The notes beneath the pieces are model-generated. The model was not told where the DNA came from. It did not search any database and saw only the letters and a program-made list of their open reading frames with translations. From a virus (taxonomy: Duplodnaviria; Caudoviricetes), in the IMG/VR virus record IMGVR_UViG_3300025264_000051, positions 1 through 34,005 of that record: DNA of 34,005 nucleotides. One strand, written 5' to 3'. Positions 9-34,004 of this stretch are shown piece by piece. A program made the position numbers and the translations under genes. Position 1 is the first letter of the stretch, and every line of letters starts with the position of its first letter.

Positions 9-209
9 TTATCCCTTTTTGCGAGTTCTCCTAGCGGGGGATTTCTTTTTAACTTTCTTAACTGGGCCTACAGCAATCATTACACCTATGCCGCCTTTAC
101 CTTTAGGCTTACTTTTTTTATCTTCTATGTATGTTCCGCCGTGCATTTTGGCAGCTTTTTTTGCGTCCTTCATACCCTTTTCAGTATAGGGCCATTTTAC
201 TGTAGGCAT
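9..209 (-). CDS. small Lys-rich hypothetical protein (contains MHGG and KGKGG)
   Basis: 66-aa ORF with AGGAG RBS upstream; in operon with the neighbouring basic proteins. Confidence 0.75.
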   Translation of the reverse strand: MPTVKWPYTEKGMKDAKKAAKMHGGTYIEDKKSKPKGKGGIGVMIAVGPVKKVKKKSPARRTRKKG

Positions 210-220
210 TATTATATCTC

Positions 221-868
221 CTATTTAAATAATTTCATTTCTTTTACACTACCACCTGCAGCATACGCATGTTTCTTACCTTTATGTGAACCGCCATGCA
301 TCATTTGTGGACGTTTAATCATACCTCCTTTATTCTTAATATATTTTCTTGTATCTCTATGTTTAAATGTATCACGACCTTGTTCATTTTTTCCCATATA
401 CATGTAGTCATTTGCTGTTTTTTCAGTTAATCGTCCTTCTTTTATTGCTTTATTAAATGCATTTATAGATTCATTACGCATATTTTGTTCTGAACTACTT
501 TTTCTTTTAGGTGGTTTTCTCATAGTTCTTCGTCTTGGTACTTTGAGAACTTCTACATTTGTAGATGTAGGAGTTGGTTCTATTTTTGGTCCAGCTTTTT
601 TTATTACATCTGTAATATCTCCTGATTCTGCTTCAAGTGTTCCTACAGATTCTTCACGAGCCTTTTCAAATATGGGTCTATCCTCAATAGCTTTATTAAT
701 TTTACCAATATCTTTTCCGGTTACGACACTTTCTGGTTTTTTTCTTTCTCTAAGAATCAGTGTACGAAGTTTCTTTAGTTCTGATAAATCAAAGCTAGAA
801 GATAAATCTTCAACAGATAATTTATGAAAGAATTTCAATGCTGCTGTTATTGCTGTAGCTTTTGCCAT
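221..868 (-). CDS. basic protein with C-terminal GG-repeat tail
   Basis: 215 aa; ends KNKGGMIKRPQMMHGGSHKGKKHAYAAGGSVKEMKLFK; start overlaps the stop of the upstream gene at 868. Confidence 0.85.
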   Translation of the reverse strand: MAKATAITAALKFFHKLSVEDLSSSFDLSELKKLRTLILRERKKPESVVTGKDIGKINKAIEDRPIFEKAREESVGTLEAESGDITDVIKKAGPKIEPTPTSTNVEVLKVPRRRTMRKPPKRKSSSEQNMRNESINAFNKAIKEGRLTEKTANDYMYMGKNEQGRDTFKHRDTRKYIKNKGGMIKRPQMMHGGSHKGKKHAYAAGGSVKEMKLFK

Positions 869-1866
869 TATACTTTCCTCTTTTTAAAATTTTTAAGTTC
901 ATTAACTTTGCCCCCGGCAGAGTAATTATGTTTCTTGCCTTTATAGGCACCGCCCTTTTGCATAGACGGTCTTTTTACAGAACCGCCTTTTTTAAATGGT
1001 TCATCCTCATAACCATAAGGCTTTCTAGGTTTAGGTGATTTAGTTGGTTTAACTTTAGTACGTTCAGCCCATGCTATTGCTGCCCTATTTCTAAGATTAT
1101 CAGATACTTGAGGGGGTAGTCTTGTTCCAATACCTTCATATTTATCTTTTGCAAATTTTAATATACTATTAGTATATTCCTCTAATGATTTCATTTTTGA
1201 AATATCAACTGCGCTAGAAAATCTAGGCCATCTCCCTGCCTCTCTCATCTTATCGTCCCCAGATAATTTTGGTTTACCTCTTTGTTTTAAAAGACCAACA
1301 ATATCTTCTCTAGCAATTTTATTAAAAGATTTTAATGCTGCTGTGGTCGCCGCCGCCTTCGCTTCTTCTGTAGGTTTTTTAGTTTCTTTAAAGCGTTTAG
1401 TTGTTGCAGTATACGGAGTTTTACCCGCTGACAATTTTTGCCAGTATTCTTTTCCTCTTTTTATGACCTCTCGTAATTCAGCATCAGAAAAATCTTCATC
1501 TACTGCTTGTCGTTTAAGGTCTGCCACAAAATCCTTTCTTTTGATAGGATTTTTTCTAAATGCTGTTATAGCAGCCGATCCAGTTTTTCCATCAAAAAGA
1601 AAATCACCAGAGCCTATATCTAAAACTGGTCTTGGTACTCTTGGTAGTTCTGTAACTCTGGCAGGTTTTTTAGGTAATGGTTTTCCTGAAGATTTTATTT
1701 TTCTAATATCTTCTAACTTCTTTATATCTGCTGGTGAGGCATCAAGCTTTTTTGCACTATTAATTAAACTATTTAGTTTCTTTACTGTTACACTAATAGC
1801 CGCCTCTGCGATAGGTAAGCTTAATAGCTCTTCAATAGCCGCTGCTATCCATTTTATTTTACTCAT
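868..1866 (-). CDS. basic protein with C-terminal GG-repeat tail; paralog of 1881-2498
   Basis: 332 aa; shares ELLSLPIAEAAI and GKTGSAAIxAFRKNP with 1881-2498; ends FKKGGSVKRPSMQKGGAYKGKKHNYSAGGKV... Confidence 0.85.
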   Translation of the reverse strand: MSKIKWIAAAIEELLSLPIAEAAISVTVKKLNSLINSAKKLDASPADIKKLEDIRKIKSSGKPLPKKPARVTELPRVPRPVLDIGSGDFLFDGKTGSAAITAFRKNPIKRKDFVADLKRQAVDEDFSDAELREVIKRGKEYWQKLSAGKTPYTATTKRFKETKKPTEEAKAAATTAALKSFNKIAREDIVGLLKQRGKPKLSGDDKMREAGRWPRFSSAVDISKMKSLEEYTNSILKFAKDKYEGIGTRLPPQVSDNLRNRAAIAWAERTKVKPTKSPKPRKPYGYEDEPFKKGGSVKRPSMQKGGAYKGKKHNYSAGGKVNELKNFKKRKV

Positions 1867-1880
1867 AATATTTACACCTT

Positions 1881-2498
1881 TTAAAAATTAAGCTTATTGA
1901 CTTTGCCACCTGCAGAATAGGAATGTTTCTTACCTTTATAGGCACCGCCCTTTTGCATAGTAGGCTTCTTGGGTTTAGATGGTTTTTGTTTAAACGCTTT
2001 ACTTGGCACGGTAGAAGGATTTGCAGCTTTGTATAAATTTTTCCAATATTTATCTGCTAATCCTTCAATTTGTTCTATTCCAGATTCCCTTGCTGCATGT
2101 GATAGGTTTTCTAATGCATCTAATTTTTCTATTGCTTGTTCTCTAATTTGATCTAAAAACTTATCCCTACTCATAGGATTTTTTCTAAATGCCTTTATAG
2201 CAGCCGATCCAGTTTTTCCTTTATAACTAAACTCACCATGTCCCAAGCCTCTTGGTATGGGTGTTAATTTTGTAATTTTATCAGTTCCTTTAGGGGTATC
2301 TTTTCCTAAAGCAGGTTGTTGCCTTCTTTTTTTAATTAGTTCTAACTTCTTTACATCTATTTGGCCGAACCTTTTATCTAAAGTTGCCCAAGTAATAAGA
2401 GTATCTAATTTCTTTTCTGACATACGTATAGCAGCTTCTGCAATAGGCAAACTTAATAGCTCTCTAATAAGTGCTTCTATACCGCTTATTTTTCCCAC
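1881..2498 (-). CDS. basic protein with C-terminal GG-repeat tail; paralog of 868-1866
   Basis: 205 aa, GTG start; ends MQKGGAYKGKKHSYSAGGKVNKLNF. Confidence 0.8.
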   Translation of the reverse strand: MGKISGIEALIRELLSLPIAEAAIRMSEKKLDTLITWATLDKRFGQIDVKKLELIKKRRQQPALGKDTPKGTDKITKLTPIPRGLGHGEFSYKGKTGSAAIKAFRKNPMSRDKFLDQIREQAIEKLDALENLSHAARESGIEQIEGLADKYWKNLYKAANPSTVPSKAFKQKPSKPKKPTMQKGGAYKGKKHSYSAGGKVNKLNF

Positions 2499-2513
2499 AG
2501 CATTTACTATCCT

Positions 2514-3053
2514 TTAAAAATTAAGCTTAGTTACTTTACCACCTGCAGAATAGGAATGTTTCTTACCTTTGTATGCTCCACCCTGCATCATTTGTGGACG
2601 TTTAACCATACCTCCCTTTGCTCTAGGTTTTTTTTCTTTTTTCTGGGCAATAGTTTCATATGGTCCTTTTTTCAATGGCTTAGGTTGGTATTTTGCTCCT
2701 GCTAAACGCTGTTGTTTTGTAACGTCTTGTTTATGTTTTTGCGCCCCTTCTTTAAATGCCTGAACAAAACTATCCATTTGTTCCTTGGTCATATCTACAC
2801 TATCACGATCTGGAGAATCATGAATCCAAGATAAGTATGGATTATCGTCATCTCGTATACCATGTCTTTGGGCTACAGAATCCATTTCTTTTCTAATATT
2901 TTTATCTATATCATCTACTTGTTTCATGAGCGCCCTATATTCAGGATCAGCCTTATATTTAGCCGCTGGATCGCCTTTTATTAACTTTGAAATTTTATCT
3001 TTAATTGTATTTGCATTTTTAATTAAAGTTCTTATGAGTGTTATTTTTGCCAT
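2514..3053 (-). CDS. basic protein with C-terminal GG-repeat tail
   Basis: 179 aa; ends RAKGGMVKRPQMMQGGAYKGKKHSYSAGGKVTKLNF. Confidence 0.85.
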   Translation of the reverse strand: MAKITLIRTLIKNANTIKDKISKLIKGDPAAKYKADPEYRALMKQVDDIDKNIRKEMDSVAQRHGIRDDDNPYLSWIHDSPDRDSVDMTKEQMDSFVQAFKEGAQKHKQDVTKQQRLAGAKYQPKPLKKGPYETIAQKKEKKPRAKGGMVKRPQMMQGGAYKGKKHSYSAGGKVTKLNF

Positions 3054-3057
3054 AATA

Positions 3058-3675
3058 TCATTTCTTTCTTTTTCTGGATTTTTTATAGCCGCCCTTATTA
3101 TAAGAAAGGGTTACTAGTTTTGTAAAAAGATCAACAGCATCAGGCCCATACTTTTTTGCTAGCTTTGCTACATCTTTAACTTCTTGATCCATATAGGTAG
3201 CTGCCATAATTTGCCCTCCTATTGTTTTAGTACCTGCTTGCTTTGGAACCTTAACTTCTGTTTTTTTACCTTGGATTTTCATTCTCTTTGTTCCAGGCGC
3301 TTTAGCAGCTTCCATCGTAGTTTTTTGTAATTGTTTATATACTCTATTTAATTTTTTTAGAGCAGTCGGAGCAATCTTTTGTGCTCCTCTTGCTAGAGTT
3401 ACACCTGTTGTACCAAATATAAGAGAAGGCAATAGAGTAGCAGCAGCGACACCAGATATTCCTAATGCAGCAGCAATCATTTCTTTCTTTTCTTTTTTAG
3501 TTATACCCCTTCTTTTAGAAACTGTACGTGCTTGTTCTGTTTCAGCACTGAATCCTTTTTTTGCTTGTTGTGTTGCTCTGTGGGGCCACATCTCTGCTCT
3601 AGTTTTAGATGTTTTAGAAACAGGAGTAGTAGTTGATACTCTTCCCAGTTTCTTTTTTTCTGCTATTTGAGTCAT
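3058..3675 (-). CDS. basic protein with a hydrophobic segment and a short GG tail
   Basis: 205 aa; hydrophobic IAAALGISGVAAATLLPSLIFG; ends SYNKGGYKKSRKRKK. Confidence 0.8.
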   Translation of the reverse strand: MTQIAEKKKLGRVSTTTPVSKTSKTRAEMWPHRATQQAKKGFSAETEQARTVSKRRGITKKEKKEMIAAALGISGVAAATLLPSLIFGTTGVTLARGAQKIAPTALKKLNRVYKQLQKTTMEAAKAPGTKRMKIQGKKTEVKVPKQAGTKTIGGQIMAATYMDQEVKDVAKLAKKYGPDAVDLFTKLVTLSYNKGGYKKSRKRKK

Positions 3676-4565
3676 TACTTTTTCTTTTTTCTAAAATGGG
3701 AGATATCAGATACAGAACCACCTCCTGCATATACATGTTCTTTAGAACCAAGTTTACTGCGACCTTGAAATTTTTTATAGCCGCCCTTATTAAAGCCAGA
3801 AGACTTAACCTGAAAACCAGCAGCTTCAAAAGCTTTTTCCATATCGGCTTTAGATACTCTTTCTCCTGCCTGATCTTGAATAGTATCTTCAAGTTCAGAT
3901 TTTGTTAACTTACCGCCCATCATATCTTGAACTTGCTGCCTAGTCAAATGAACATCTCTTCCTAATGCAGCTTCAATTCGTTCATGTAAGGGCATATCCC
4001 GTTTAGGTATATCTCCTTCAATTTTTGATTTAGGTGCTTGTCTTCCACCAGGATAAGAATATCTCTTTAGGCCCTTTGCTAGTTTTTTCATGGAAGCCTC
4101 TGTATTTTCATCCCACAATTTTTGTCCTTCAGGAGTAAGATCTCTTTGTCTTGCTCCTCCACTACCCCCTAAACTCTGTTGAATATCCCTTTTTAATTGC
4201 TTTTTAGCTTCTCTGTTTTTTCTGGCTTCTGTTTGTTTAGGAGTTAATTTTCTACCACTAGTTTTAGCGGCCATTTCTTTATATTCTTTTATTCGTTTAG
4301 CTTGTGCTGGAGTAGGGGTATAGTCTTTTCCTTTTTCTTTTTTTGGCACACCTTCTGCTTTACTTTTACTTTTTGTTCCGCTTTTTAATTTACCTAACTG
4401 ACTATTAATTTCAGTTAATTTCTTTTTTCTGGGATCAGTTAACTTGCCAGCCTTCTCATATCCTAGAAGTTTGTCAAGTTCTTTAGTAAGCCACTTTACA
4501 TATCTGCCTAAATCTAGGCCAGTTAATTTTAGTGCCTCTTCTATAGTTTTTATTTTTCGTGCCAT
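3675..4565 (-). CDS. basic protein with a variant GG tail
   Basis: 296 aa; ends GFNKGGYKKFQGRSKLGSKEHVYAGGGSVSDISHFRKKKK. Confidence 0.85.
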   Translation of the reverse strand: MARKIKTIEEALKLTGLDLGRYVKWLTKELDKLLGYEKAGKLTDPRKKKLTEINSQLGKLKSGTKSKSKAEGVPKKEKGKDYTPTPAQAKRIKEYKEMAAKTSGRKLTPKQTEARKNREAKKQLKRDIQQSLGGSGGARQRDLTPEGQKLWDENTEASMKKLAKGLKRYSYPGGRQAPKSKIEGDIPKRDMPLHERIEAALGRDVHLTRQQVQDMMGGKLTKSELEDTIQDQAGERVSKADMEKAFEAAGFQVKSSGFNKGGYKKFQGRSKLGSKEHVYAGGGSVSDISHFRKKKK

Positions 4566-4577
4566 TGTACTTGTTCC

Positions 4578-4703
4578 CTATACATCCATAGTTTCTTGTT
4601 CTTCATTACTAGAATGACAGCCACAAGCACATACAACTTCCAAACAATTATTGCCTACACAAAGACAATCTTCGCAGGTACAATTATCACAGTCACAACT
4701 CAT
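4578..4703 (-). CDS. metallothionein-like Cys-rich peptide (41 aa; not in the ORF track)
   Basis: Hand translation MSCDCDNCTCEDCLCVGNNCLEVVCACGCHSSNEEQETMDV; 10 Cys with several CxC motifs; AAGGAG RBS 7 nt upstream of the ATG. Confidence 0.75.
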   Translation of the reverse strand: MSCDCDNCTCEDCLCVGNNCLEVVCACGCHSSNEEQETMDV

Positions 4704-4984: not shown

Positions 4985-5188
4985 CTAATCCTTATCCCAA
5001 CCTTCTGCTTTCAGTGCGTTATATACATGTTCATAAGTATAATTGGTCCCTGTCGCCTGTCTTATGGCGGCACGAACATATACAACTTCATGATGGGGAA
5101 GACGAATGCGTTCTTCATAATTCATTATACTACGATAGAACATTTCCAAAGTTAGATCGTTATACCATTTTAACTGATTTTTCTGCAT
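4985..5188 (-). CDS. hypothetical phage protein
   Basis: ORF in operon orientation (FYRS...PHHEVVYVRAAIRQATG...ALKAEGW); start uncertain. Confidence 0.65.
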   Translation of the reverse strand: MQKNQLKWYNDLTLEMFYRSIMNYEERIRLPHHEVVYVRAAIRQATGTNYTYEHVYNALKAEGWDKD

Positions 5189-5202
5189 TGTCAAGTAAAA
5201 AA

Positions 5203-5586
5203 TTACACTAAATTATTTAATTTAGGAGGTACGTAGTTTTTAGATTTAATTACTTTGCCATCTTTGTTATATACAGGATTTCCTTCATCGTCAAGCTTAG
5301 ACATATTAGATGCATGTACACGATTAAATGCCGTATCAAAATCCCAACCATATGTAGTCGCCATACCTACACATACATAAACTAAATCACACAACTCTTT
5401 AAGAACCTTGTCAGCTTTTTTAGTTGCAATTGCTTCTATCACTTCGTTATATTCTTCTTCGATTAACTTACGCCTGAGAAGAAGATTCTTATCTACAGAA
5501 TTTAATGGTGGGTAATTTATATCTACAGGATGTTCAAAAGTACTATGAAAACTATTTAATTTATTTGATACAGATTCACATCTCAT
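5203..5586 (-). CDS. MazG-like / PRA-PH-like NTP pyrophosphohydrolase
   Basis: LIEEEYNE...KELCDLVYV...FNRVHASNMSK...DGKVIKS motifs typical of this family. Confidence 0.88.
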   Translation of the reverse strand: MRCESVSNKLNSFHSTFEHPVDINYPPLNSVDKNLLLRRKLIEEEYNEVIEAIATKKADKVLKELCDLVYVCVGMATTYGWDFDTAFNRVHASNMSKLDDEGNPVYNKDGKVIKSKNYVPPKLNNLV

Positions 5587-6439: not shown

Positions 6440-6524
<85 letters not shown>

Positions 6525-6565
6525 TCTTTTGTTTATTATCGTGCAACCTTAAATCGGAGGAAAAT

Positions 6566-6718
6566 TTGGACGAAATTGTTATCACTTATCCTACAGAGGA
6601 TAATATAAATACTTTTGATTGGGAAACAATCCATAGTATTTCCGATAACTTTAAAAAGCTTGATTTTGTTGAGCTTCTTATTGTTCGTTCCCGTTTAAAT
6701 AAAATCATAGATGGCTAG
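6566..6718 (+). CDS. small hypothetical protein (50 aa, TTG start)
   Basis: Hand translation MDEIVITYPTEDNINTFDWETIHSISDNFKKLDFVELLIVRSRLNKIIDG; GGAGG RBS upstream. Confidence 0.5.
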   Translation: MDEIVITYPTEDNINTFDWETIHSISDNFKKLDFVELLIVRSRLNKIIDG

Positions 6719-7774: not shown

Positions 7775-8000
7775 ATTGTCCTTCATGTATTGGCTCCGTA
7801 TTTACATAGCTTTGATGGCTATAATAGGGACGTTAATATTACAAAGTATAATCATAGATAGTTTAATAGAGTACTATGGTTATTTCTATGTGGCTGTAGC
7901 TGTGATAGTACCAATGTTATTGGTGATATCATTAAAATGTTTTCACTATGCTGTTTCCGACATAAGAAAATCTTCTATAAAATGGTCGAACATAAGTTGA
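7767..8000 (+). CDS. small membrane protein (two hydrophobic segments)
   Basis: 3' part of ORF 7713-8000; AAGGA RBS before the ATG at 7767; IYIALMAIIGTLILQSIII and YFYVAVAVIVPMLLVISL. Confidence 0.6.
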   Translation: MIKLSFMYWLRIYIALMAIIGTLILQSIIIDSLIEYYGYFYVAVAVIVPMLLVISLKCFHYAVSDIRKSSIKWSNIS

Positions 8001-8007
8001 CCGAAAC

Positions 8008-8054
8008 CTATATATCCCTGACCCCTATACGTAGTATAGGGTCAGGGTATATAG
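8008..8054. repeat. family-A hairpin repeat, copy 3
   Basis: CTATATATCCCTGACCCCTATAC-GTA-GTATAGGGTCAGGGTATATAG. Confidence 0.92.
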
Positions 8055-8081
8055 ACTGGCTGAAACCAACTGGAGATTGCA

Positions 8082-8357
8082 ATGAAGATAATATTATATG
8101 GTACCTTTGGTGGCTTCCATCTTAGCGATGAGATGGTCGATCTCTATGAAGAAAAAACGGGTATTGTCTTAGACAATTACTCTTATGACTATGATAGAAC
8201 TGATCCTATCTTGATACAAGTAATAAAGGAGAATGATCCAGAAGATAACTTTAGAGTATGGGATATCCCGAAAGGAACAGAATATATCATAGATCAATAT
8301 GATGGTAGAGAGTCTCTTATAATTAAAGACGAGGTTAAATGGCAGGTTGCCACTTGA
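8082..8357 (+). CDS. conserved-type phage hypothetical protein
   Basis: FGGFHLS...RTDPILIQVI...IPKGTEYIIDQYDGRES pattern recalled from phage hypotheticals; GGAG RBS. Confidence 0.8.
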   Translation: MKIILYGTFGGFHLSDEMVDLYEEKTGIVLDNYSYDYDRTDPILIQVIKENDPEDNFRVWDIPKGTEYIIDQYDGRESLIIKDEVKWQVAT

Positions 8358-8364
8358 CTGAAAC

Positions 8365-8410
8365 CTATATACCCTAACCCCTATACGTAGTATAGGGTTA
8401 GGGGATATAG
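8365..8410. repeat. family-A hairpin repeat, copy 4
   Basis: CTATATACCCTAACCCCTATAC-GTA-GTATAGGGTTAGGGGATATAG. Confidence 0.92.
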
Positions 8411-8445
8411 ACTGACCAACCAACCAACCAAATGGAGATTGTTAT

Positions 8446-8634
8446 ATGAACAGAGACATCATGTTAGCCGCTGGCTTTGGTAAAAGTCTTGACTTAATTG
8501 ACGGGGGCAAATGCCCTACTTGTTCCGCTGAAATAGATCATAATTTTAGAGATGAATTAAGTCTAAAGGAATACAAAATCTCTGGCATGTGTCAAGATTG
8601 CCAAGATAGTTTCTTTAGTGTAGAAGATATATAA
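8446..8634 (+). CDS. small zinc-binding protein
   Basis: CPTC...FRDELSLKEYKISGMCQDC; GGAG RBS. Confidence 0.78.
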   Translation: MNRDIMLAAGFGKSLDLIDGGKCPTCSAEIDHNFRDELSLKEYKISGMCQDCQDSFFSVEDI

Positions 8635-8652
8635 AGGAAGGATAATCGAAAC

Positions 8653-8698
8653 CTATATACCCTAACCCCTATACGTAGTATAGGGTTAGGGGATATAG
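8653..8698. repeat. family-A hairpin repeat, copy 5
   Basis: Identical to copy 4 across the hairpin. Confidence 0.92.
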
Positions 8699-8701
8699 AA
8701 A

Positions 8702-8870
8702 TTTGGAGTATTTAATGGGGGATATGAGCGGTTAGAAATCAAGGTCGCTACTTGAGCCGCAAGGGGAATCCATTCTTTTACTTTATATAGTAAAAGATCA
8801 GCCTGTCTAAGGTAAGGAGGATTCTACGCATGGCCTTTAGCAAGTCATGTCTCCCATTAAATACTTTGAA
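8702..8870 (+). ncRNA. candidate multi-branched structured RNA of unknown family
   Basis: 8702-8727 pairs with 8845-8870 over 26 bp (with G-U pairs), enclosing inner stems; no long ORF inside. Confidence 0.55.
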
Positions 8871-8882
8871 AAGGAGAATGTT

Positions 8883-9050
8883 ATGGAACTACCCGACGAC
8901 ATGGATATTCCTTTGAGTCGAAAGGATATATCTAATATAAATAATGTTGCTTGGCTCCTAAGAAATTTAGGGATTCGCAACCAAGGTCACCCCGAATTTG
9001 AGGAGATAATTAAATTCCTTATCACTCTAATGAGAAAAAGGTCACGGTAA
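8883..9050 (+). CDS. small hypothetical protein
   Basis: 3' part of ORF 8847-9050; AAGGAG RBS before the ATG at 8883. Confidence 0.65.
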   Translation: MELPDDMDIPLSRKDISNINNVAWLLRNLGIRNQGHPEFEEIIKFLITLMRKRSR

Positions 9051-9388
9051 TGAGATACAACTACGAAGAAATGCAGTCTGCAGTAAAAGATTTAGCTATG
9101 GACTTTCCGCCAGAATGTGAATTGTCCTTTGGTTACATAGGTAACCTAGAATTTGGTAGGGATTACCGTAGCTGGTATATCTTTACCCAAGCTAAAGATA
9201 GACGTTGGAGTAGACTAAGCTATCCTATCAGAGTATCTAAAGATAAAGAAGAAAATTATATCTTTAGATTAGATAAAGATAAATTTAAGATGTGGCTAGA
9301 AAAGAATAGTTACCATCCAACTCTAGCTGTACAGTGTATAGCTTGCCAAGGCAAAGGATATACCTTGTTCAATAAGGATAGCGACTAA
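9050..9388 (+). CDS. hypothetical protein with a C-terminal CxxCxGxG half-site
   Basis: 112 aa; start coupled to the upstream stop; CIACQGKG. Confidence 0.7.
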   Translation: MRYNYEEMQSAVKDLAMDFPPECELSFGYIGNLEFGRDYRSWYIFTQAKDRRWSRLSYPIRVSKDKEENYIFRLDKDKFKMWLEKNSYHPTLAVQCIACQGKGYTLFNKDSD

Positions 9389-9395
9389 CCGAAAC

Positions 9396-9442
9396 CTATA
9401 TATCCCTGACCCCTATACGTAGTATAGGGTCAGGGTATATAG
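9396..9442. repeat. family-A hairpin repeat, copy 6
   Basis: Identical to copy 3 across the hairpin. Confidence 0.92.
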
Positions 9443-9467
9443 ACTGGCCGAAACCAACCGGAGGAAT

Positions 9468-9725
9468 GTGATGATAGATTTTATTGCTGCCCATAATGGC
9501 GGTATACAGATGTTTGCTAATGGTTTTAATCTCAAAGGTTGGGCAAAGACCGTTGAAGGTATTGTTTATACTCTCAAAACGGTTGGACTTGCTAACTGTG
9601 TGATGGGTTCCAGCACGATGGACTTTGCCTCTGAAGAAGGGTTTGAGAATGATGGTGACGCCATGAAGTTGTGGGATGCCGCCATTGAGATTTATAATTG
9701 GGAAGTAAATGGAGTTGCTGGATAA
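9468..9725 (+). CDS. hypothetical early protein
   Basis: 85-aa ORF; GGAGG RBS; bounded by hairpin copies 6 and 7. Confidence 0.75.
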   Translation: MMIDFIAAHNGGIQMFANGFNLKGWAKTVEGIVYTLKTVGLANCVMGSSTMDFASEEGFENDGDAMKLWDAAIEIYNWEVNGVAG

Positions 9726-9732
9726 CCGAAAC

Positions 9733-9778
9733 CTATAGACCCTGACCCCTATACGTAGTATAGGGTCAGGGTCTATAG
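9733..9778. repeat. family-A hairpin repeat, copy 7
   Basis: CTATAGACCCTGACCCCTATAC-GTA-GTATAGGGTCAGGGTCTATAG. Confidence 0.92.
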
Positions 9779-9794
9779 AGATATGGAGAAGCCG

Positions 9795-10499
9795 ATGCTA
9801 AACACGATCGAATACAGTGAAGGTGCCAAGTTGGGCCGTGCTCATGGTACTTATAGGGCAGGTAAAGATAATCCTTATGCTACTTGCCCTAATGACTGCC
9901 CTCTGAAGCCAGAGGACTGGCAAGGTACAGATGAATTTGACATAGACTATATGTCTGATTTATCTAAGGCGGTACCTCGCCGGGGCTGGGCTTGGACTTA
10001 CAGTCACTTTGCTGTAAAATTATGGCGGCATCTTAATGGTGCTGGCCGTACCGTTATCAATGCTTCATGTAAATCTATACAAGAAGCCATAGATAATACA
10101 TTAAGTGGTGTCCCTTCGGTGCTGGATGTACCGCCAGACACTCCTAAAGTATTTAAGGAAGGAGGAGTTAGATTTATTACATGCCCTGCTGCCATAAGAA
10201 AAGATATTACTTGTAATAATTGTGGCGGTATCAACGGCCCACTCTGTGCTAGAGTAGAAAGAAACTATGTAATTACTTTCCCTTGGCATGGCACTAAAGG
10301 CACAGTTAATAAAATGCTTGCCGCTCAAAAGGGAATATGCTATGGAGTGGGGTACTTTGTGAACAAACATTGGCGGTGGCTGTCTAATCAAGATCAAGAT
10401 AATATAACTGACGGTCAAAAGCTATTAGCTTGGACAAAGACATTAGCTCCAGGCAGTAGGCTCCGACACCATGTGGTTGGTGATGGTGGAAAGGAGTAA
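9795..10499 (+). CDS. Cys-rich putative metal/Fe-S-binding enzyme of unknown function
   Basis: TCPNDCPL, WTYSH, INAS, TCPA, TCNNCG...PLCAR, WHG and RHHVVGD motifs; GGAG RBS before the ATG at 9795. Confidence 0.7.
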   Translation: MLNTIEYSEGAKLGRAHGTYRAGKDNPYATCPNDCPLKPEDWQGTDEFDIDYMSDLSKAVPRRGWAWTYSHFAVKLWRHLNGAGRTVINASCKSIQEAIDNTLSGVPSVLDVPPDTPKVFKEGGVRFITCPAAIRKDITCNNCGGINGPLCARVERNYVITFPWHGTKGTVNKMLAAQKGICYGVGYFVNKHWRWLSNQDQDNITDGQKLLAWTKTLAPGSRLRHHVVGDGGKE

Positions 10500-10500
10500 C

Positions 10501-10546
10501 CTATGGCCCGTGGCCCCTATACGAAGTATAGGGCCACGGGACATAG
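10501..10546. repeat. family-A hairpin repeat, copy 8 (divergent arms)
   Basis: CTATGGCCCGTGGCCCCTATAC-GAA-GTATAGGGCCACGGGACATAG. Confidence 0.9.
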
Positions 10547-10562
10547 AGATAAGGAGAAAGTG

Positions 10563-10730
10563 ATGCATGAACTTGTCTTATATAAAACAGATATCAAGTC
10601 TAATGACTTGTGGCTGTACATTTTAGAGTCAGTTGGTATTGAATCTCACGGCACATTTGCTGGTAAAGTTCTTGATAAAAATATTGAAAGTATTACTATC
10701 AAGGTGCAGTCGGCAGCAGAGTTGCGGTGA
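10563..10730 (+). CDS. small hypothetical protein
   Basis: 3' part of ORF 10503-10730; AAGGAG RBS after the hairpin; start is GTG 10560 or ATG 10563. Confidence 0.65.
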   Translation: MHELVLYKTDIKSNDLWLYILESVGIESHGTFAGKVLDKNIESITIKVQSAAELR

Positions 10731-10735
10731 GAAAC

Positions 10736-10781
10736 CTATGGCCCGTGGCCCCTATACGAAGTATAGGGCCACGGGACATAG
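10736..10781. repeat. family-A hairpin repeat, copy 9
   Basis: Identical to copy 8. Confidence 0.9.
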
Positions 10782-10797
10782 AGACATGGAGATTGGC

Positions 10798-10947
10798 ATG
10801 AGGAAAAAGAAAATACAGAAAGGCAATCCCGTTGCCAAGTCGTTGCGTAGCCAGCATCTTCGGAAGCAGGTAGTACCTAGTAAGAAAGCGTATAACAGAA
10901 ACAAAGTTAACAAGGAGAATATCTATGACAAAGATCAAGACATTTGA
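10798..10947 (+). CDS. small basic protein (NPVAKxL...VVPSKKAYNR)
   Basis: 3' part of ORF 10633-10947; GGAG RBS; motif recalled from small phage proteins. Confidence 0.7.
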   Translation: MRKKKIQKGNPVAKSLRSQHLRKQVVPSKKAYNRNKVNKENIYDKDQDI

Positions 10948-11134
10948 AGCATATCGCCACGAGTTGAAGGCCCCGAAGTGGGTCACTATCCCAAGGGATA
11001 AGGGCGTTAGCTATGGCAAGCATTTGGAAAAGGGCAACCCGATCCAGGTAGTTTGGACTCAAGAGGATGGAGATCGCAAGGCCCATCTGATTAAGAATAA
11101 AGATAACTTGCCAGCAGAGCTTGCTGCTGGCTAG
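10925..11134 (+). CDS. hypothetical protein
   Basis: 69-aa ORF; AAGGAG RBS. Confidence 0.7.
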   Translation: MTKIKTFEAYRHELKAPKWVTIPRDKGVSYGKHLEKGNPIQVVWTQEDGDRKAHLIKNKDNLPAELAAG

Positions 11135-11143
11135 TTTAACCCC

Positions 11144-11174
11144 GGCCCTGCCTCTTATATTGAGGGGCAGGGCC
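11144..11174 (+). other. intergenic stem-loop
   Basis: GGCCCTGCCTCTTA-TAT-TGAGGGGCAGGGCC (G-U pairs); no clear U-tract. Confidence 0.55.
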
Positions 11175-11198
11175 ACTACTTTACAAGGAGAATATGAT

Positions 11199-11432
11199 AT
11201 GGCTACGTACAAGATTACTATGAGAAAGAATGCAAAGTCTCCGAAGTATGATACTTTGTTCGGCATCAACAGCACCTCCACTGGGTACAGATTAGATGTA
11301 CCTTTCCATAGTTTGACAAAGATGAACCCGAAGGGTAGCCGTAAGATGGTACGGTCTTCGACATCTGGTATTAGATTAATCGTAGAGAATAATAGGCGAG
11401 GCAAGTCAAGTGTCTTTCACTTTACTGTCTGA
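11199..11432 (+). CDS. basic hypothetical protein
   Basis: 3' part of ORF 11121-11432; AAGGAG RBS before the ATG at 11199. Confidence 0.7.
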   Translation: MATYKITMRKNAKSPKYDTLFGINSTSTGYRLDVPFHSLTKMNPKGSRKMVRSSTSGIRLIVENNRRGKSSVFHFTV

Positions 11433-11437
11433 TTAAA

Positions 11438-11493
11438 TATCTATTGCCAATGTAGCTATGCATCTAATGCATAGCTATGTTGGTGGATAGTAT
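11438..11493 (+). other. long intergenic stem-loop
   Basis: ...GCCAATGTAGCTATGCAT-CTA-ATGCATAGCTATGTTGGT... with several G-U pairs. Confidence 0.55.
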
Positions 11494-11523
11494 GCACTAT
11501 AATGCAGATAGAAAGGAATAGCT

Positions 11524-11721
11524 ATGTCTGATAAATTAAAATCTATGGACTATCAACTGATGACAGATAGAGTACAAGAGTTAATGACAAAAGGAAAGGA
11601 AAGTAAACGAGGTGGCTGGGCAATGTCAGAAATAGTAGAGAAAATTGGCACTGAATTTGGACAGGACTATGAGGAATCTTGCCGCCAATATATAAAAGAA
11701 TATATATTGTATAGCAGATAG
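11524..11721 (+). CDS. hypothetical protein
   Basis: 65-aa ORF; AAGGA RBS. Confidence 0.7.
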   Translation: MSDKLKSMDYQLMTDRVQELMTKGKESKRGGWAMSEIVEKIGTEFGQDYEESCRQYIKEYILYSR

Positions 11722-11732
11722 GAAAAATAAAA

Positions 11733-11915
11733 ATGAACTACGATATGATGATGGGTTTTTTGCGTACTTGTCCTTCACATAAATGGGAAGTAGAAGAAGT
11801 TTGCTGGGCTACACCAGCAGAAAAGGGTACAGTATTAGTAAGATTTATAATAGAACAAAATATTTGGGACATGGAAGATGAAGAAGATGATAGGGTACAA
11901 ACTGTTTCGTCATAG
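11733..11915 (+). CDS. hypothetical protein
   Basis: 60-aa ORF in operon. Confidence 0.6.
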   Translation: MNYDMMMGFLRTCPSHKWEVEEVCWATPAEKGTVLVRFIIEQNIWDMEDEEDDRVQTVSS

Positions 11916-12192
11916 AAAAGATGGGACTATAGGGCCTTTGTTTATAAATAAAAGACAAAGGATACAGATAGGAGTAGAATATCCCTATGAAAAACATCTG
12001 ACAAAAGGTTTTAAATACAGACCTGGATGGCACATTTGTAGTCAACCCATAGCACCACATCTATCTAAGAAAGATAGAGTATGGGCAAAGGTAGACTTTA
12101 CTTTTATGTCTATGTTAGATAGACCTAAATCACAGGGAGGTACATGGTATTTGGGTAGCACTATGAAAGTATTAGAATTAGTGGAGGAATAG
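11878..12192 (+). CDS. hypothetical phage protein
   Basis: GYKLFR...GPLFIN...TKGFKYRPGWH...PHL pattern; start may be 11887. Confidence 0.75.
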   Translation: MKKMIGYKLFRHRKDGTIGPLFINKRQRIQIGVEYPYEKHLTKGFKYRPGWHICSQPIAPHLSKKDRVWAKVDFTFMSMLDRPKSQGGTWYLGSTMKVLELVEE

Positions 12193-12193
12193 C

Positions 12194-12382
12194 ATGGAGA
12201 CAGAGAAGGACAATGTAATACCGCCAGAAGTTTTTTGGAAAAGAAAAGTAGATTGGTTTATTTATATGTGGCAGTGCGGCAAAGACAGTACGCCACAATT
12301 CATAATCAATCTAGTTCGTATGGGTTACCCCGAAGAAGATGTAATAAAATATATTGAGGACTACGAAGATGATAAAGAATAG
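12194..12382 (+). CDS. hypothetical protein
   Basis: 62-aa ORF; GGAGG RBS. Confidence 0.65.
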   Translation: METEKDNVIPPEVFWKRKVDWFIYMWQCGKDSTPQFIINLVRMGYPEEDVIKYIEDYEDDKE

Positions 12383-12385
12383 TGC

Positions 12386-12413
12386 TTGACATTTTATACA
12401 GCTTGTGTATACT
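12386..12413 (+). promoter_or_regulatory. sigma70-type promoter
   Basis: TTGACA-16 nt-TATACT, intergenic, just upstream of hairpin copy 10. Confidence 0.6.
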
Positions 12414-12432
12414 GTGTGGAACACACACATAC

Positions 12433-12478
12433 CTATATTCTCTAACCCCTATACGTAGTATAGGGTTAGAGAATATAG
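12433..12478. repeat. family-A hairpin repeat, copy 10
   Basis: CTATATTCTCTAACCCCTATAC-GTA-GTATAGGGTTAGAGAATATAG. Confidence 0.9.
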
Positions 12479-12502
12479 AAATAGGAAGGGACAAATTGTA
12501 GC

Positions 12503-19011: not shown

Positions 19012-21057
19012 ATGAAACTAACAATAGATGTAGAAAATACAGCTACAAAACTGCCCTCTGGTAAGACGCTTCTTGATCCCTTTGTACCAGAGAATAAATT
19101 AGTTTTAGTATGTACAAAGAAAGATACAGGGGAGGAATCTTCCTTCTGGTTTGGACATTCTACACATAGTATGGAGAATGCTAAAGAACTTTTACAGAAG
19201 CAACTTGATGAGGCCACTGTTCTTATATGCCATAATGCACAGCATGAGTTAGTATGGTTGTGGGATACAGGATTTAAATATGACAATGCTGTGTTTGATA
19301 CCATGCTGGTAGAGTATTTGTTTCAACGTGCAATGAAACAACCTCTATCTTTACAGGCTGTTGCTGAACACTATGCTTTACAAAATAAAAAGATGGATAC
19401 TCTGTCTGACAATTTAAACAAAGGTATATCTGTAGATAATATAGATGGGGATCAGTTGCTAGAGTATTGTATGGCAGATGTACAAGCTACACAAGAATTA
19501 GCAGATCGCTTACGTAGAAAAATGTTTAGTAAAGACTATGCCCCTCTGCAAAATATAATTAATCTTACCAATGAATTGTGTATACTGTTGGCAAAAATAT
19601 ATTACAGGGGCTTTGCAATTAATAAGCAAACTCTATTACAAGTTAAAGAAGAATTTAAAAAGGAGCAGCAGGATATTAAACAGTCTCTTGATCAACAGAC
19701 CCATGAACTTATGGGAGATACCCCCATTAATCTTGCATCACCAGAGCAATTAAGTATGGTTATATATAGCCGCAAGCCAAAGGGCAAAGCTACATGGTCA
19801 GATAACTTTTCTAAGTACATGAAAAAGAAAGACTTTATATCAATGGTAAATAACAATTCTAATATTGTATATAAAACTACAGCCATTCAGTGTAAGTCTT
19901 GCTTTGGTAGAGGATATAATTTAGCTATCAAGAAAGATGGTACTACAGGAAAAGCTAAACGTATTTGTAAAGCATGTAATCGTTCTGGTATATTGTATAT
20001 TCCTAGTGATAGAATAGCAGGGCTAAAGTTTTCTCCTCCTGCTGCTAGTTGGGTAGCCAATCATGGTTTCAGTACCAGTAAAGTTAATATAGAAATGCTA
20101 GAGGAGGTTGCTAAACGAAGAGGCATGGATAAGGCTGAACAGTTTTTGTATAAAGTACGTAGGCTATCTGCTTTAGATACCTATCTATCTTCCTTTGTAG
20201 AAGGCATAGAAACTTTTATGAAAGATGATAGTAGATTACATGTTAGATTAATACAACACAGAACCACAACTGGTAGGCTGGCTTCTGATTCTCCTAACTT
20301 ACAGAACATGCCAAGAGGACAGACGTTCCCAATAAAGAAAGTATTTCATTCTCGTTGGGACAATGGAAAGATTATAGAAGCAGACTTCTCACAATTAGAA
20401 TTTAGAGTGGCGGCTTTCCTGGGAAATGATGAAGTTGCAAAGCAGGAAATCGCCACTGGAGTTGATGTTCACAGTTACACTGCTAAAGTTATTACAGAAT
20501 CTGGACAGAAAACTTCTAGACAAGAAGCAAAGGCACATACCTTTGCACCACTGTTCGGTGCTACAGGATTTGGTAGGACATCTGCAGAGGCAGCTTATTA
20601 TAAACAGTTTACTGATAAATACTATGGTATTGCTTCTTGGCATAGTAAACTTGCTAATGAAGTTATGTCTACAGGAATGGTAACTACTGTTACTGGTAGG
20701 CAGTTTGCATTTCCTAATGCACAGCGCAGACAAAACGGAGGCATAACCCACTTTACTGCAGTGAAAAATTATCCAGTACAATCTTTGTCTACTGATATAG
20801 TACAAACTTTATTACTATTGGTGGAACAAAAGATGCGTAACGCTTGTCTAAAAAGCTTGATTGTTAACAGCGTTCATGATAGTGTAGTGATAGACTGCTT
20901 TCCATCAGAAGAACAGGAGGTTTTAGCTTGTGTTAAACAAGCAGAGAAATTTTTAGACAGTTGTTTACACTCTAGGTTTGGAATAGAATTTGATATTCCT
21001 CTTGAATTAGAATGTAAGATAGGAAAAAACTGGATGGAGATGCAAGATTATGGTTGA
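19012..21057 (+). CDS. polA: family A DNA polymerase with 3'-5' exonuclease and inserted DnaJ-type zinc finger
   Basis: ExoI DVE; TTTGRLAS..PNLQN; motif A EADFSQLEFR; motif B RQEAKAHTFAPLFG; motif C VHDS; CKSCFGRG...CKACNRSG insert. Confidence 0.96.
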   Translation: MKLTIDVENTATKLPSGKTLLDPFVPENKLVLVCTKKDTGEESSFWFGHSTHSMENAKELLQKQLDEATVLICHNAQHELVWLWDTGFKYDNAVFDTMLVEYLFQRAMKQPLSLQAVAEHYALQNKKMDTLSDNLNKGISVDNIDGDQLLEYCMADVQATQELADRLRRKMFSKDYAPLQNIINLTNELCILLAKIYYRGFAINKQTLLQVKEEFKKEQQDIKQSLDQQTHELMGDTPINLASPEQLSMVIYSRKPKGKATWSDNFSKYMKKKDFISMVNNNSNIVYKTTAIQCKSCFGRGYNLAIKKDGTTGKAKRICKACNRSGILYIPSDRIAGLKFSPPAASWVANHGFSTSKVNIEMLEEVAKRRGMDKAEQFLYKVRRLSALDTYLSSFVEGIETFMKDDSRLHVRLIQHRTTTGRLASDSPNLQNMPRGQTFPIKKVFHSRWDNGKIIEADFSQLEFRVAAFLGNDEVAKQEIATGVDVHSYTAKVITESGQKTSRQEAKAHTFAPLFGATGFGRTSAEAAYYKQFTDKYYGIASWHSKLANEVMSTGMVTTVTGRQFAFPNAQRRQNGGITHFTAVKNYPVQSLSTDIVQTLLLLVEQKMRNACLKSLIVNSVHDSVVIDCFPSEEQEVLACVKQAEKFLDSCLHSRFGIEFDIPLELECKIGKNWMEMQDYG

Positions 21058-30200: not shown

Positions 30201-30527
30201 TAGTCCCGCTTGCATTCCTCTTTCGGATAGAAATCCTTTTCCTTCAAAACTTTCTATGCGATCAAACACATGAGATAAATTACGTAATCTTGTTTTAGTT
30301 TTGTTATCGGAATCTTGTGCGTACTGTAGGTCACCCATGATTTGTTTTTCATCTACAGAAGATTTGCGCCAGTGCTCAAGGTAAGCATCGAAAGCTTCCT
30401 CATGTGTAGCATGAAACTCATTATTTCTACCAGCATTAAAACTATATAAATCATTTATAAAATCTTGATCACTTAATAAATAACCACGATTCATTTTTTC
30501 ATCTGGAAGAGATGCATAATCAGCCAT
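27246..30527 (-). CDS. large probable internal virion (ejection) protein
   Basis: 1093-aa Ala/Gly-rich helical protein at the end of the late operon; function inferred from size and position. Confidence 0.65.
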   Translation of the reverse strand: MADYASLPDEKMNRGYLLSDQDFINDLYSFNAGRNNEFHATHEEAFDAYLEHWRKSSVDEKQIMGDLQYAQDSDNKTKTRLRNLSHVFDRIESFEGKGFLSERGMQAGLDYLEGLGQSPSTWISLLASGGYTAFLKTRGGLGKRGLAAAKAMVDAPAAQLTRVQAMGIGFRSLLRAAAPAMVVEGAAGGLHGAWEGKFEEVIGRAPEGEAIKRAAVGVPLGVAGGTLEGLPIAFAAMRKGRKFAKVAEEGDTALARSREEAIEQTKKVLSSPKPKDKRTINWADKQLRALDAAKVEAGILIKKELGPDGEELVAGLSRETVDGIKAAAVEIAERVGFNSGDPLARITERVSSAIADGTLDTIELRKIALKYNLNMEDLSHLFMAEVSEAARTLRSMRTVKHYATYSGIEARKAAKDRRDSLQKTLHSMSPTSVEEVEYLTRIGSMGKRANAWMQEANKFRLRLMTSQFTTTIRNMENVGLRLPLHMIEYVLTGTENSTIRKRLASAAKIPFDLFDKASADIFAEVYTEAVGEKGAQRLFRAAMDTATSVNPESSLAKAGRAVNVLNTFVDNAVKKTVLLAEIRKIAGGTAELNEVIRKGKLKELLLDNHEAHEEAIAETLHLVYQKSYSPDSFAGKFINTIAHSNLAPLWTSVIPFPRYLANQTEFIYRHMPIIGMISPLLKAATPGKKLGRGELQKRLAQQVTGMSMLGTAYQIKLTQGPEVAWNHYVDDQGKTHDITALLGPFAPFMFAADLIYRMSEGTNKYSIPLIKTKEDVRTNLNKVNLREAFKAFSGIQSRVGTGLYITDRLIQDVAMWAADLGSDETTKGSDAAEKIATGFAANYLNTFTIPVGMFRDLQASFDPEGRKIMDTDRVDLGRYFFNQLLRTFPNTEAMRNTEKFFGITGEYKDSDLLQAGRGDQIELTFPTIREGRTRFLPFRRQTTGTTLIMDRKGTPLIDKELFSLGLARQDYIRRWGNADMNREYKRQMGIIAKRELEPLITSSRYRNKSINLRREEFKDALGPLKQRAKENARIAVSERSPSHAHEVARWEFTAMDATKRRAAAERYKKATGKNINDTEDYLTALQYKKPKAK

Positions 30528-33518: not shown

Positions 33519-34004
33519 TTATGCTGTTCCGAACAAGCCTTTCACAACACCTGTCAATGAATCTTTAAATACGCTACCTATAAAACCACCAATACTTCTA
33601 GAGTCTTCTCTATCTGCTTTGAAGTCTGCTAAATCTCTGGAAGAATTATTATTAAGTGTGGCAATCTGTAAAGTAGAAATCCTATCAAGTTCACTTTCTC
33701 CTGCTGAGAAGGCCAATTCTAAAACATCTCTATACTCTTGCCATAAATTATCATAGGCAACATTACTTATATTAAGTAGGTTCTGAGCATTAAGTTGATT
33801 TTGAAAATTTAAGGCAGCAGTATCTGCAGTCGCAATTTCTCTGCGCCATACAGCATTACTCTGTTCAATAGCAAGTTGGTTACGTGCATTAAACTGTTCT
33901 CTTTGATTTACAATTTCTGAATTAAATCTCTGTAAAGCATTTACTTCTCCAGCATTAAACTGGTTCATGGCATTTGATTGTGCTGTATTATTTTGACCAA
34001 TACT
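33519..34004 (-). CDS. 3' end of an Asn/Gln-rich probable virion protein (truncated by the window edge)
   Basis: Frame stays open from 33968 to the window edge; NQFNA/QRFNS/EQFNA repeats. Confidence 0.75.
   Translation of the reverse strand, partial: SIGQNNTAQSNAMNQFNAGEVNALQRFNSEIVNQREQFNARNQLAIEQSNAVWRREIATADTAALNFQNQLNAQNLLNISNVAYDNLWQEYRDVLELAFSAGESELDRISTLQIATLNNNSSRDLADFKADREDSRSIGGFIGSVFKDSLTGVVKGLFGTA

Follow-up and report, generated by a model that had tools for sequence, protein, structure and literature searches.

A Gly-Gly unit in the tails of six arrayed basic proteins of an HMO-2011-type marine podophage, a candidate signal on virion cargo

Six consecutive genes at the start of the late operon of a marine podophage encode basic proteins whose C-terminal tails are built on a recurring Gly-Gly unit. 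They lie on the minus strand at positions 221 to 4565 of a 34,005-nucleotide stretch of viral DNA (IMG/VR record IMGVR_UViG_3300025264_000051; Duplodnaviria, Caudoviricetes), the whole of which is called the window here, and come shortly after a conserved gene for a protein of 69 amino acids (aa). The six proteins have an isoelectric point (pI) of 9.9-10.6 and contain 21-24% lysine plus arginine (K+R). An earlier examination of the DNA letters, hereafter the sequence-only reading, had described the six tails, and all of them were found as described: the full form, M-[MQ]-[HKQ]-G-G-[AS]-[YH]-K-G-K-K-H-[SNA]-Y-[SA]-A-G-G-[KS]-V, in four open reading frames (ORFs), the variant FNKGGY...YAGGGS in gene 1 (ORF 3675) and the short form YNKGGY in gene 2 (ORF 3058). 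The tails can be reduced to a unit, bulky-x-x-G-G-hydrophobic, and an additional upstream copy of it is found in three of the four full-form tails (KNKGGM, FKKGGS and RAKGGM).

Gene 1 (3675..4565, 296 aa) carries FNKGGY at residue 258 (nucleotides 3777-3794) and YAGGGS at residue 279 (3714-3731); in its orthologue in two near relatives, contigs L005 and L006, FNKGGY is kept and the second unit is altered. Gene 2 (3058..3675, 205 aa) has the single unit YNKGGY at residue 192 (3085-3102), followed by a basic tail of 13 residues. Its N-terminal stretch is shared, as judged by eye, by the homologues P0011-P0015, which continue past the unit with an extra module and the bipartite tag, that is, the two-unit full-form tail. 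Gene 3 (2514..3053, 179 aa) carries RAKGGM (144), MMQGGA (155) and YSAGGK (168) in nucleotides 2535-2624, and its homologues of 121-244 aa keep the tag around a variable middle. Gene 4 (1881..2498, 205 aa, GTG start) carries MQKGGA (181) and YSAGGK (194) in nucleotides 1902-1958 and is a paralogue of gene 5 (868..1866, 332 aa), which carries FKKGGS (291), MQKGGA (302) and YSAGGK (315) in nucleotides 907-996. Gene 6 (221..868, 215 aa) carries KNKGGM (178), MMHGGS (189) and YAAGGS (202) in nucleotides 248-337. Directly before its tag lies a 57-aa insert (residues 123-180; window 329-502, minus strand), absent from the 158-aa L005 orthologue, which has the composition of a small folded domain and matches no other protein of the loci compared. 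The array is followed by a very basic 66-aa ORF (9..209, minus strand), which has one relative (L008:197-397). The MHGG that the sequence-only reading had noted in it is present at residues 22-25, close to the N-terminus, and fits a widened pattern only; this ORF is at most a possible seventh member. A strongly amphipathic N-terminal stretch is seen in five of the six array proteins (90th-97th percentile within each protein) and, by eye, in several tagged proteins of relatives; it may act as a further signal, concerned with contact to membranes or with the order of export.

Shuffling predicts 0.72 units for the array tails; they contain 14, all within 45 residues of the C-terminus. The other 38 window ORFs scanned contain five against 1.73 expected. 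The joint P of 3e-11 is post hoc because the pattern was written after the window had been seen, and a fair test is therefore provided by relatives outside it. A stricter pattern was applied to 78 related loci; L001-L003, L087, L004 (a contig of this same phage), the near-duplicates L006, L026, L061 and L068 and exact duplicate proteins were excluded from the counts, and the ORFs were called mechanically, so that some short ones are spurious. Among 160 basic ORFs at the operon start, upstream of the terminase, 84 units were found against 4.8 expected; 53 of these ORFs carry a unit, and in those of at least 100 aa 45 of 54 units fall within the last 50 residues. The 48 proteins resembling HMO-2011 gp49 (gp49-like proteins) contain 136 units against 7.6 expected, and 46 of them carry one. 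The enrichment is thus about 18-fold in both classes. Other upstream ORFs (249) contain 13 units against 2.7 expected and other downstream ORFs (115) contain 34 against 4.9. Portal, terminase, scaffold, capsid, lysis and tail proteins, 469 in all, are depleted in the unit (six against 20.0 expected), and a scan of 41 scaffold proteins found none. In HMO-2011-type phages the unit is restricted to presumed internal proteins. One to six unit-bearing genes stand at the operon start in each of the 20 loci that extend that far. Three of these loci are the window phage and two near relatives, a lineage that has the most tagged genes (five or six), and the remaining 17 carry one to four. Tagged operon-start genes are also present in the isolates HMO-2011 (gp67 and gp68) and CRP-345 (gp75, gp77 and gp79). 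Some short genes of relatives consist almost entirely of Met/Lys-rich Gly-Gly repeats of 10-13 residues (L013:2735-2956, L031:154-306, L033:3861-4199, L081:5492-5740 and L002:35972-36094).

No PHROGs or Pfam family was found above cut-off for any of the six array proteins, and tblastn with a 45-aa tag gave no match among isolates. blastp ties this tag to HMO-2011 gp67, which has the same bipartite form as the array; the bipartite tag is the tail of the gp67 family, copied onto several bodies in the window lineage. In the homologues P0009-P0015 two different bodies are fused to one shared module plus tag, with the joints exactly at units; units thus mark where modules have been swapped. The sequence-only reading had called the bodies mostly unrelated. 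This holds for most pairs (E > 0.05) and fails for genes 5 and 4 (ORFs 868 and 1881), which remain 42% identical over 159 aa (E 4e-29) after removal of the last 45 residues; genes 5 and 6 (ORFs 868 and 221) with tails removed show a weak similarity (37% over 52 aa, E 5e-4). The six genes thus have about five types of body. Homology over the full length of all members, which would have made the array a set of ordinary paralogues, was not seen: only ORFs 868 and 1881 align over the body.

Duplication and recombination alone might still explain the tails, as recent duplicates of the end of a gp67-like gene that offer homology for gene shuffling and have no function as peptides. The tails are about 78-81% identical in nucleotides over 100-200 bases, two members are true paralogues, and the bipartite form traces to one family. 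However, the codons for each of the five invariant Gly residues in the bipartite tag differ synonymously among seven copies (four from the window and three from L005) while the peptide is kept. Moreover, dozens of unrelated families carry the unit with no similarity in their DNA, and shell proteins are depleted in it. Because the invariant codons vary synonymously, selection acts at the peptide level; a DNA-level repeat or an RNA element was rejected on the same ground. Duplication accounts for the spread of the tag in the window lineage and not for its retention, and as a full explanation it is very improbable.

The gp49-like gene, which encodes the second class of unit-bearing proteins, lies two genes after the portal gene and specifies a conserved domain of about 90 residues at variable positions, preceded by LysM, lysozyme, LPD23 or modules of no recognised type and itself flanked by units. 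Among 255 further gp49-like proteins 253 carry units (872 against 41.7 expected). A unit follows the conserved domain in 219 of the 253 and falls in the last 30 aa in 136; units immediately preceding the domain (251 of 253) were disregarded, since the search profile itself includes that unit and the figure would be circular. When Gly-Gly in these proteins is collected with no constraint on its flanks, M, F or Y is preferred at -3, A, N, S or D at -2, K or E at -1, L or M at +2 and V at +3. In units of HMO-type phages the bulky position is Phe (0.38), Met (0.36), Tyr (0.08) or Arg (0.02). These preferences bear on another idea, in which the six would be histone- or protamine-like and bind DNA in the infected cell or in the head, the Lys/Gly-Gly tail being a flexible repeat that binds nucleic acid. 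A pI of about 10, net charges of +10 to +26 for the bodies and +6 to +13 for the tails, and the short proteins of relatives made of such repeats only would all suit it. Yet gp49-like proteins, with a K+R content of only about 10%, are 18- to 21-fold enriched in the unit, and the bulky residue at -3 and the hydrophobic ones at +2 and +3 are more strongly selected than the basic ones, which makes nucleic-acid binding an improbable role for the unit itself.

The gp49 domain was found in 4557 clusters at E <= 0.001. Among the isolate matches listed, 33 of the 46 rows outside the HMO type are annotated as tape measures, although with weak scores (E 1e-4 to 7) and many near-duplicates. In an alignment of the versions from gp49, from other marine podophages and from tape-measure-like proteins, G26, G32, D40, S47 and E50 are invariant. 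A profile widened in this way gives lambda gpH 11.3 bits, against at most 3.9 in 500 shuffles, and the narrow profile gives it 3.0 bits, which two of 500 shuffles exceed. The gp49 domain may therefore be related to the C-terminal domains of tape measures. Two structure models of the domain reached predicted template modelling (pTM) scores of 0.41 and 0.55; Foldseek matched neither to a solved structure, VIA-align of the first found only helix-level similarity (Z <= 3.5), and a viral structure library returned the domain's own family and weak tape-measure rows. A sequence search of the PDB with query A1 gave nothing below E 0.1. A similarity lead in feature space (0.84) points to the portal-binding domain of crAss_CARG1, the Pfam family of the crassvirus cargo protein C1, but none of 36 gp49-domain members matched Pfam. 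Complex prediction of the gp49 domain with the tag scored 0.00 in both runs, with the controls not folded. In the closest relatives (L006:10989-11273 and L007:4389-4673) the domain is divergent, 41% identical to the common type, and the preceding unit is lost, while the basic tagged array is largest. The C-termini of HMO-2011 gp25 and gp49 and CRP-345 gp62 (L001:8505-10625 and L002:24841-28581) are accessory domains that differ between phages; that of CRP-345 gp62 follows a long poly-Gly linker and begins with Cys-Cys-Phe, which we take to be reminiscent of an intein/Hint start.

A mapped cleavage in another phage provides a candidate register for the unit. The tape measure pb2 of T5 is processed to pb2* and pb2C by a cut after R1127 (PMC10038345). 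Residues 1128-1133 are AEGGMM, which fits the unit from the Ala onward, so that the cut falls two residues before Gly-Gly. A-x-G-G occurs twice in the 1219 aa of pb2, and AEGGMM is the sole unit in nine T5 tail proteins (5474 aa) under a scan pattern that was widened to admit Arg after the site had been seen. The sequence-only reading had pointed to adenain, African swine fever virus (ASFV) pS273R, Ulp/SENP and C39 peptidases as analogues. These enzymes cut after Gly-Gly. An enzyme of this kind would leave bodies that end in Gly-Gly like ubiquitin, for maturation or as decoys of conjugation systems, and would suit the invariant Gly-Gly at module joints; the likeness to the di-glycine proteases is that Gly-Gly stands at a processing site. 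Their register fits poorly, however: the only mapped cut at such a unit, that of T5 pb2, precedes x-x-G-G, the density of a crassvirus cargo protein discussed below includes the Gly-Gly at the start of its portal-bound piece, and positions on the C-terminal side of Gly-Gly are under as much selection as those on its N-terminal side. Nor was a peptidase of these types found in Pfam scans of 17 window proteins and 50 late proteins of relatives. Cleavage after Gly-Gly is thus very unlikely.

The tape measure of lambda, gpH, is likewise cut, to gpH* and gpHC, with loss of a C-terminal peptide of about 14 kDa; site and enzyme were stated to be unknown in 2025 (PMC12617516). It has units at 733 and 778, flanking a G-E-F-V core, and lambda gpM, L, K and I have no unit. 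Both pb2 and gpH are ejected proteins, the T5 cut yields an N-terminus, A-E-G-G-M-M, that fits the unit, and the gpH core between units appears related to the gp49 domain. In contrast to the array, where one tag is reused on many small basic genes, a tape measure is cut once near the end of a protein of the tail lumen, and the array proteins lack the gp49-related domain. No Gly-Gly motif is mentioned in the available portions of the two tape-measure papers (PMC10038345; PMC12617516).

The cargo protein C1 (gp45; Pfam PF25725) of crAss001 has been shown to be inside the virion; its residues 425-552 are portal-bound and 214-245 lie in the tail barrel, 420 Å apart, with an intact linker assumed (PMC10172136). 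It has about nine units, including a basic C-terminal one, and the portal, capsid and gp31 of crAss001 have none. The portal-bound piece begins at the Ala of A425-F-G-G, in the T5 register, and ends before F559-A-Y-G-G, and units stand on both sides of the portal-bound domain in all 11 homologues examined. Orthologues gain or lose whole stretches between units, and the one in L113 lacks such a stretch. C1 resembles the array proteins in carrying several units, with a basic one at the C-terminus, and is shown cargo as they are presumed to be; it has in addition a portal-bound domain between units, and it differs in having been published as a continuous chain, with no motif described in the accessible part of the report (PMC10172136). 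Published matrix-assisted laser desorption/ionization (MALDI) peak lists of virion gel bands (PMC6235969, supplement file 8) were re-matched to crAss001 proteins, and bands were assigned to gp47, gp49/gp44, portal, gp26, gp22, gp25, gp23, capsid and gp36. None of 26 fully tryptic C1 peptides was matched in bands 3-10, 12 and 13, including those assigned to proteins of 77-97 kDa; for the portal, equal to C1 in size and copy number, eight of 38 peptides were matched.

From these observations a working model can be drawn in which the unit is a dock-and-clip signal on virion cargo. The unit would first anchor the tagged basic proteins in the prohead, and a later cut immediately ahead of x-x-Gly-Gly would free the bodies and short basic peptides; in gene 3 (ORF 2514) the predicted bonds are those between R144 and A145, M155 and M156, and Y168 and S169. 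The reader, and possibly the cutter, would be the conserved 90-residue domain of the gp49 family with its invariant G, G, D, S and E. Once released, the Lys-rich bodies and tails would either neutralise the packaged DNA or be a swappable early payload for injection. The unit, its conservation as a peptide, its distribution, its place at module joints and its match to the T5 cut are observed; the packaging and cleavage of the six array proteins and the role of the gp49 domain are inferred. We regard the chance that the unit is cut before x-x-G-G in this manner as about even, and the more general claim that it marks virion cargo, whether clipped or left as an uncut handle, as quite probable. The sequence-only reading had proposed that a variable set of cargo has in common a tag for addressing or processing, and this proposal gains indirect support from the enrichment in presumed internal proteins with depletion in shell and packaging proteins, from the units at module junctions and from the bracketed portal-bound domain of C1.

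If the unit were never cut, it could act as a docking handle that binds a reader associated with the portal or scaffold for co-assembly in the prohead, the T5 cut being a separate case. The distribution across relatives and gp49-like proteins fits such a handle equally well, several units per tail and pure-repeat peptides suit avidity, and A-F-G-G of C1 is ordered at the portal as expected of a bound handle; moreover, no protease was found in the 50 late proteins, and C1 was published as continuous. Against it, the mapped T5 cut is exactly at a unit, units part folded modules inside long proteins, where a handle at every joint would be needless, and, as weak evidence, C1 at full length was missing from the gel bands where it should have run. 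On balance we think a purely uncut handle rather unlikely.

Several points weigh against the dock-and-clip model itself. The available text of the HMO-2011-type papers PMC6918029 and PMC9038755 contains no proteomics terms, and nothing there places the six proteins in virions. The sequence-only reading had suggested looking for a co-occurring protease, and no peptidase above cut-off was found by Pfam in the 17 window proteins scanned or in the 50 late proteins of relatives, adenain-, Ulp/SENP-, pS273R- and C39-type cysteine peptidases included; the genome is incomplete, and the host might supply an enzyme. No clear unit is present in two presumed ejection proteins encoded in the window (27246-30527 and 30893-32566), where KTRGGL is the one match to the widened pattern; cargo proteins therefore do not all require the unit. 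The gp49 of the relative L006 stood in for the window phage's own. The hhalign probability linking gp49 to tape measures (97.3%) is partly circular because the tape-measure set was chosen by similarity. The gp49-domain profile matches neither T5 pb2C nor crAss001 C1, hhalign of the domain with C1 gave probabilities of 0.2 and 2.3, and homology between the domain and C1 was not confirmed in the profile tests. Furthermore, Arg precedes the cut in T5, and the corresponding residue of HMO-type units is mostly Phe, Met or Tyr. This difference and the failures on pb2C and C1 mean that the three systems may share a look and not a mechanism. In lambda, a cut between F733 and A734 would release 12.5 kDa; cuts in the Gly-rich stretch 710-721 would release 13.8-14.5 kDa and fit the reported size of about 14 kDa better. 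Bayfield et al. described C1 as a single uncut chain bridging 420 Å (PMC10172136). In the gel data two of 26 C1 peptides matched in band 11 (capsid) against 0.7 expected and no C1 fragments were seen in smaller bands; the result, from bands 3-13, is one of absence only, and the unit-free crAss001 gp46 was also unseen.

A bolder extension would join these systems. One peptide code, a bulky residue followed by the cut and x-x-Gly-Gly, and one small self-processing reader domain with the core D-x-P-A-x-L-S-x-G-E-F-V would be common to short-tailed marine phages, crassviruses and long-tailed phages like lambda and T5; the domain would dock at the portal or tail tip, capture unit-bearing proteins and clip them, and the unit would be a portable load-and-release tag for ejected cargo. 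This would also supply the catalyst and the site in lambda gpH, between F733 and A734 or between Y778 and A779. We consider the extension doubtful.

Loading of cargo by a tag that is later clipped is already known from T4. The capsid targeting sequence (CTS) of the internal proteins IPI-III is an N-terminal propeptide of 10-19 residues that is cut after L/I-x-E, and the prohead protease gp21 also cuts scaffold and capsid (PMC9026906). The proposed likeness lies in a short portable tag on small, basic, sequence-diverse proteins, in targeting followed by removal and in a variable set of cargo, on the available part of that account (PMC9026906). The differences are that the array tag is C-terminal or internal, multi-copy and based on Gly-Gly, that the N-termini of the array proteins differ, that the scaffold and capsid of HMO-type phages have no unit, and that no gp21-like protease is seen among the 50 late proteins, a divergent one being possible. 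The T4 analogy of the sequence-only reading thus survives in its logic but fails for the sequence, the position and the protease. The gp49-like proteins, with their LPD23, LysM and lysozyme modules, resemble the polyvalent proteins of phages (Iyer et al. 2017, PMC5512222) in being mosaic and probably packaged. Processing of polyvalent proteins is ascribed to zincin-like peptidase domains, the word 'glycine' never occurs in the accessible text of that paper, and the six array proteins lack any Pfam domain above cut-off. The sequence-only reading had known of no description of the motif, and a literature search, mostly outside subscription journals, found none either; the sequence, the register and the candidate reader are undescribed.

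The phage is placed by its polymerase. A family A DNA polymerase encoded at 19012..21057 on the plus strand, 53.6% identical (679 aa) to that of HMO-2011 and outside the tag system, has the two zinc-finger-like CxxC repeats of a partial DnaJ domain, CKSCFGRG at 294 and CKACNRSG at 319, the second with one deviation. This insert is the defining criterion of HMO-2011-type phages (PMC9038755), and on this evidence the window phage, a marine podophage, belongs to this type. The terminase, portal and capsid genes typical of the group lie outside the window; L004, 99.9% identical over an overlap of 13 kb, runs on into lysis genes, TerS and part of TerL, and L005 and L006 extend to the portal and the gp49-like gene. 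The 69-aa gene (4985..5194, minus strand), a homologue of HMO-2011 gp71 and CRP-345 gp81 (E 2e-9 and 1e-14), marks the late operon start and serves as a synteny anchor. At the other end of the window (33519..34004, minus strand) lies the C-terminal part of a presumed ejection protein, 55% identical over 144 aa to HMO-2011 gp25/CRP-345 gp44; these relatives have units near the N-terminus, and the matching part of the window homologue falls outside the window.

Several further features were noted in this genome. A 41-aa acidic ORF with nine Cys (4578-4703, minus strand), metallothionein-like by composition, adjoins the array and is kept in L004-L006. A MazG-like pyrophosphatase gene (5203-5586, minus strand) heads the late strand; in HMO-2011 and CRP-345 it follows ribonucleotide reductase on the early strand. 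Between early genes at 8000-12500, self-matches of L004 show several direct repeats of 50-96 bases (for example, 8000-8075/9388-9463, 8360-8411/8648-8699/12431-12482 and 10494-10557/10729-10792, with 6106-6201/6731-6823 as another), which are likely to be promoter or recombination cassettes. A poly-Lys run in the minus-strand translation at 6482-6585 (in the frame of a 41-aa ORF, 6460-6585) points to T-rich DNA of low complexity, or to an artefact of the assembly, around 6480-6530. L004 continues directly past the left end of the window with an inserted gene for a 329-aa protein of oxygenase-like composition (L004:13049-14038), which separates the array from the lysis genes and is not found in L005 or L006.

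Outside T4-like systems, little has been established on how short-tailed phages choose cargo for packing and injection. For crAss001, T5 and lambda the unit yields predictions at the level of single residues, and the short pure-repeat proteins of relatives would give protamine-like peptides if cut. If the model is true, phage particles could be loaded with proteins of choice by means of the unit as a portable tag, and the injected or DNA-packing payload of a highly abundant group of ocean phages would be readable from sequence alone.

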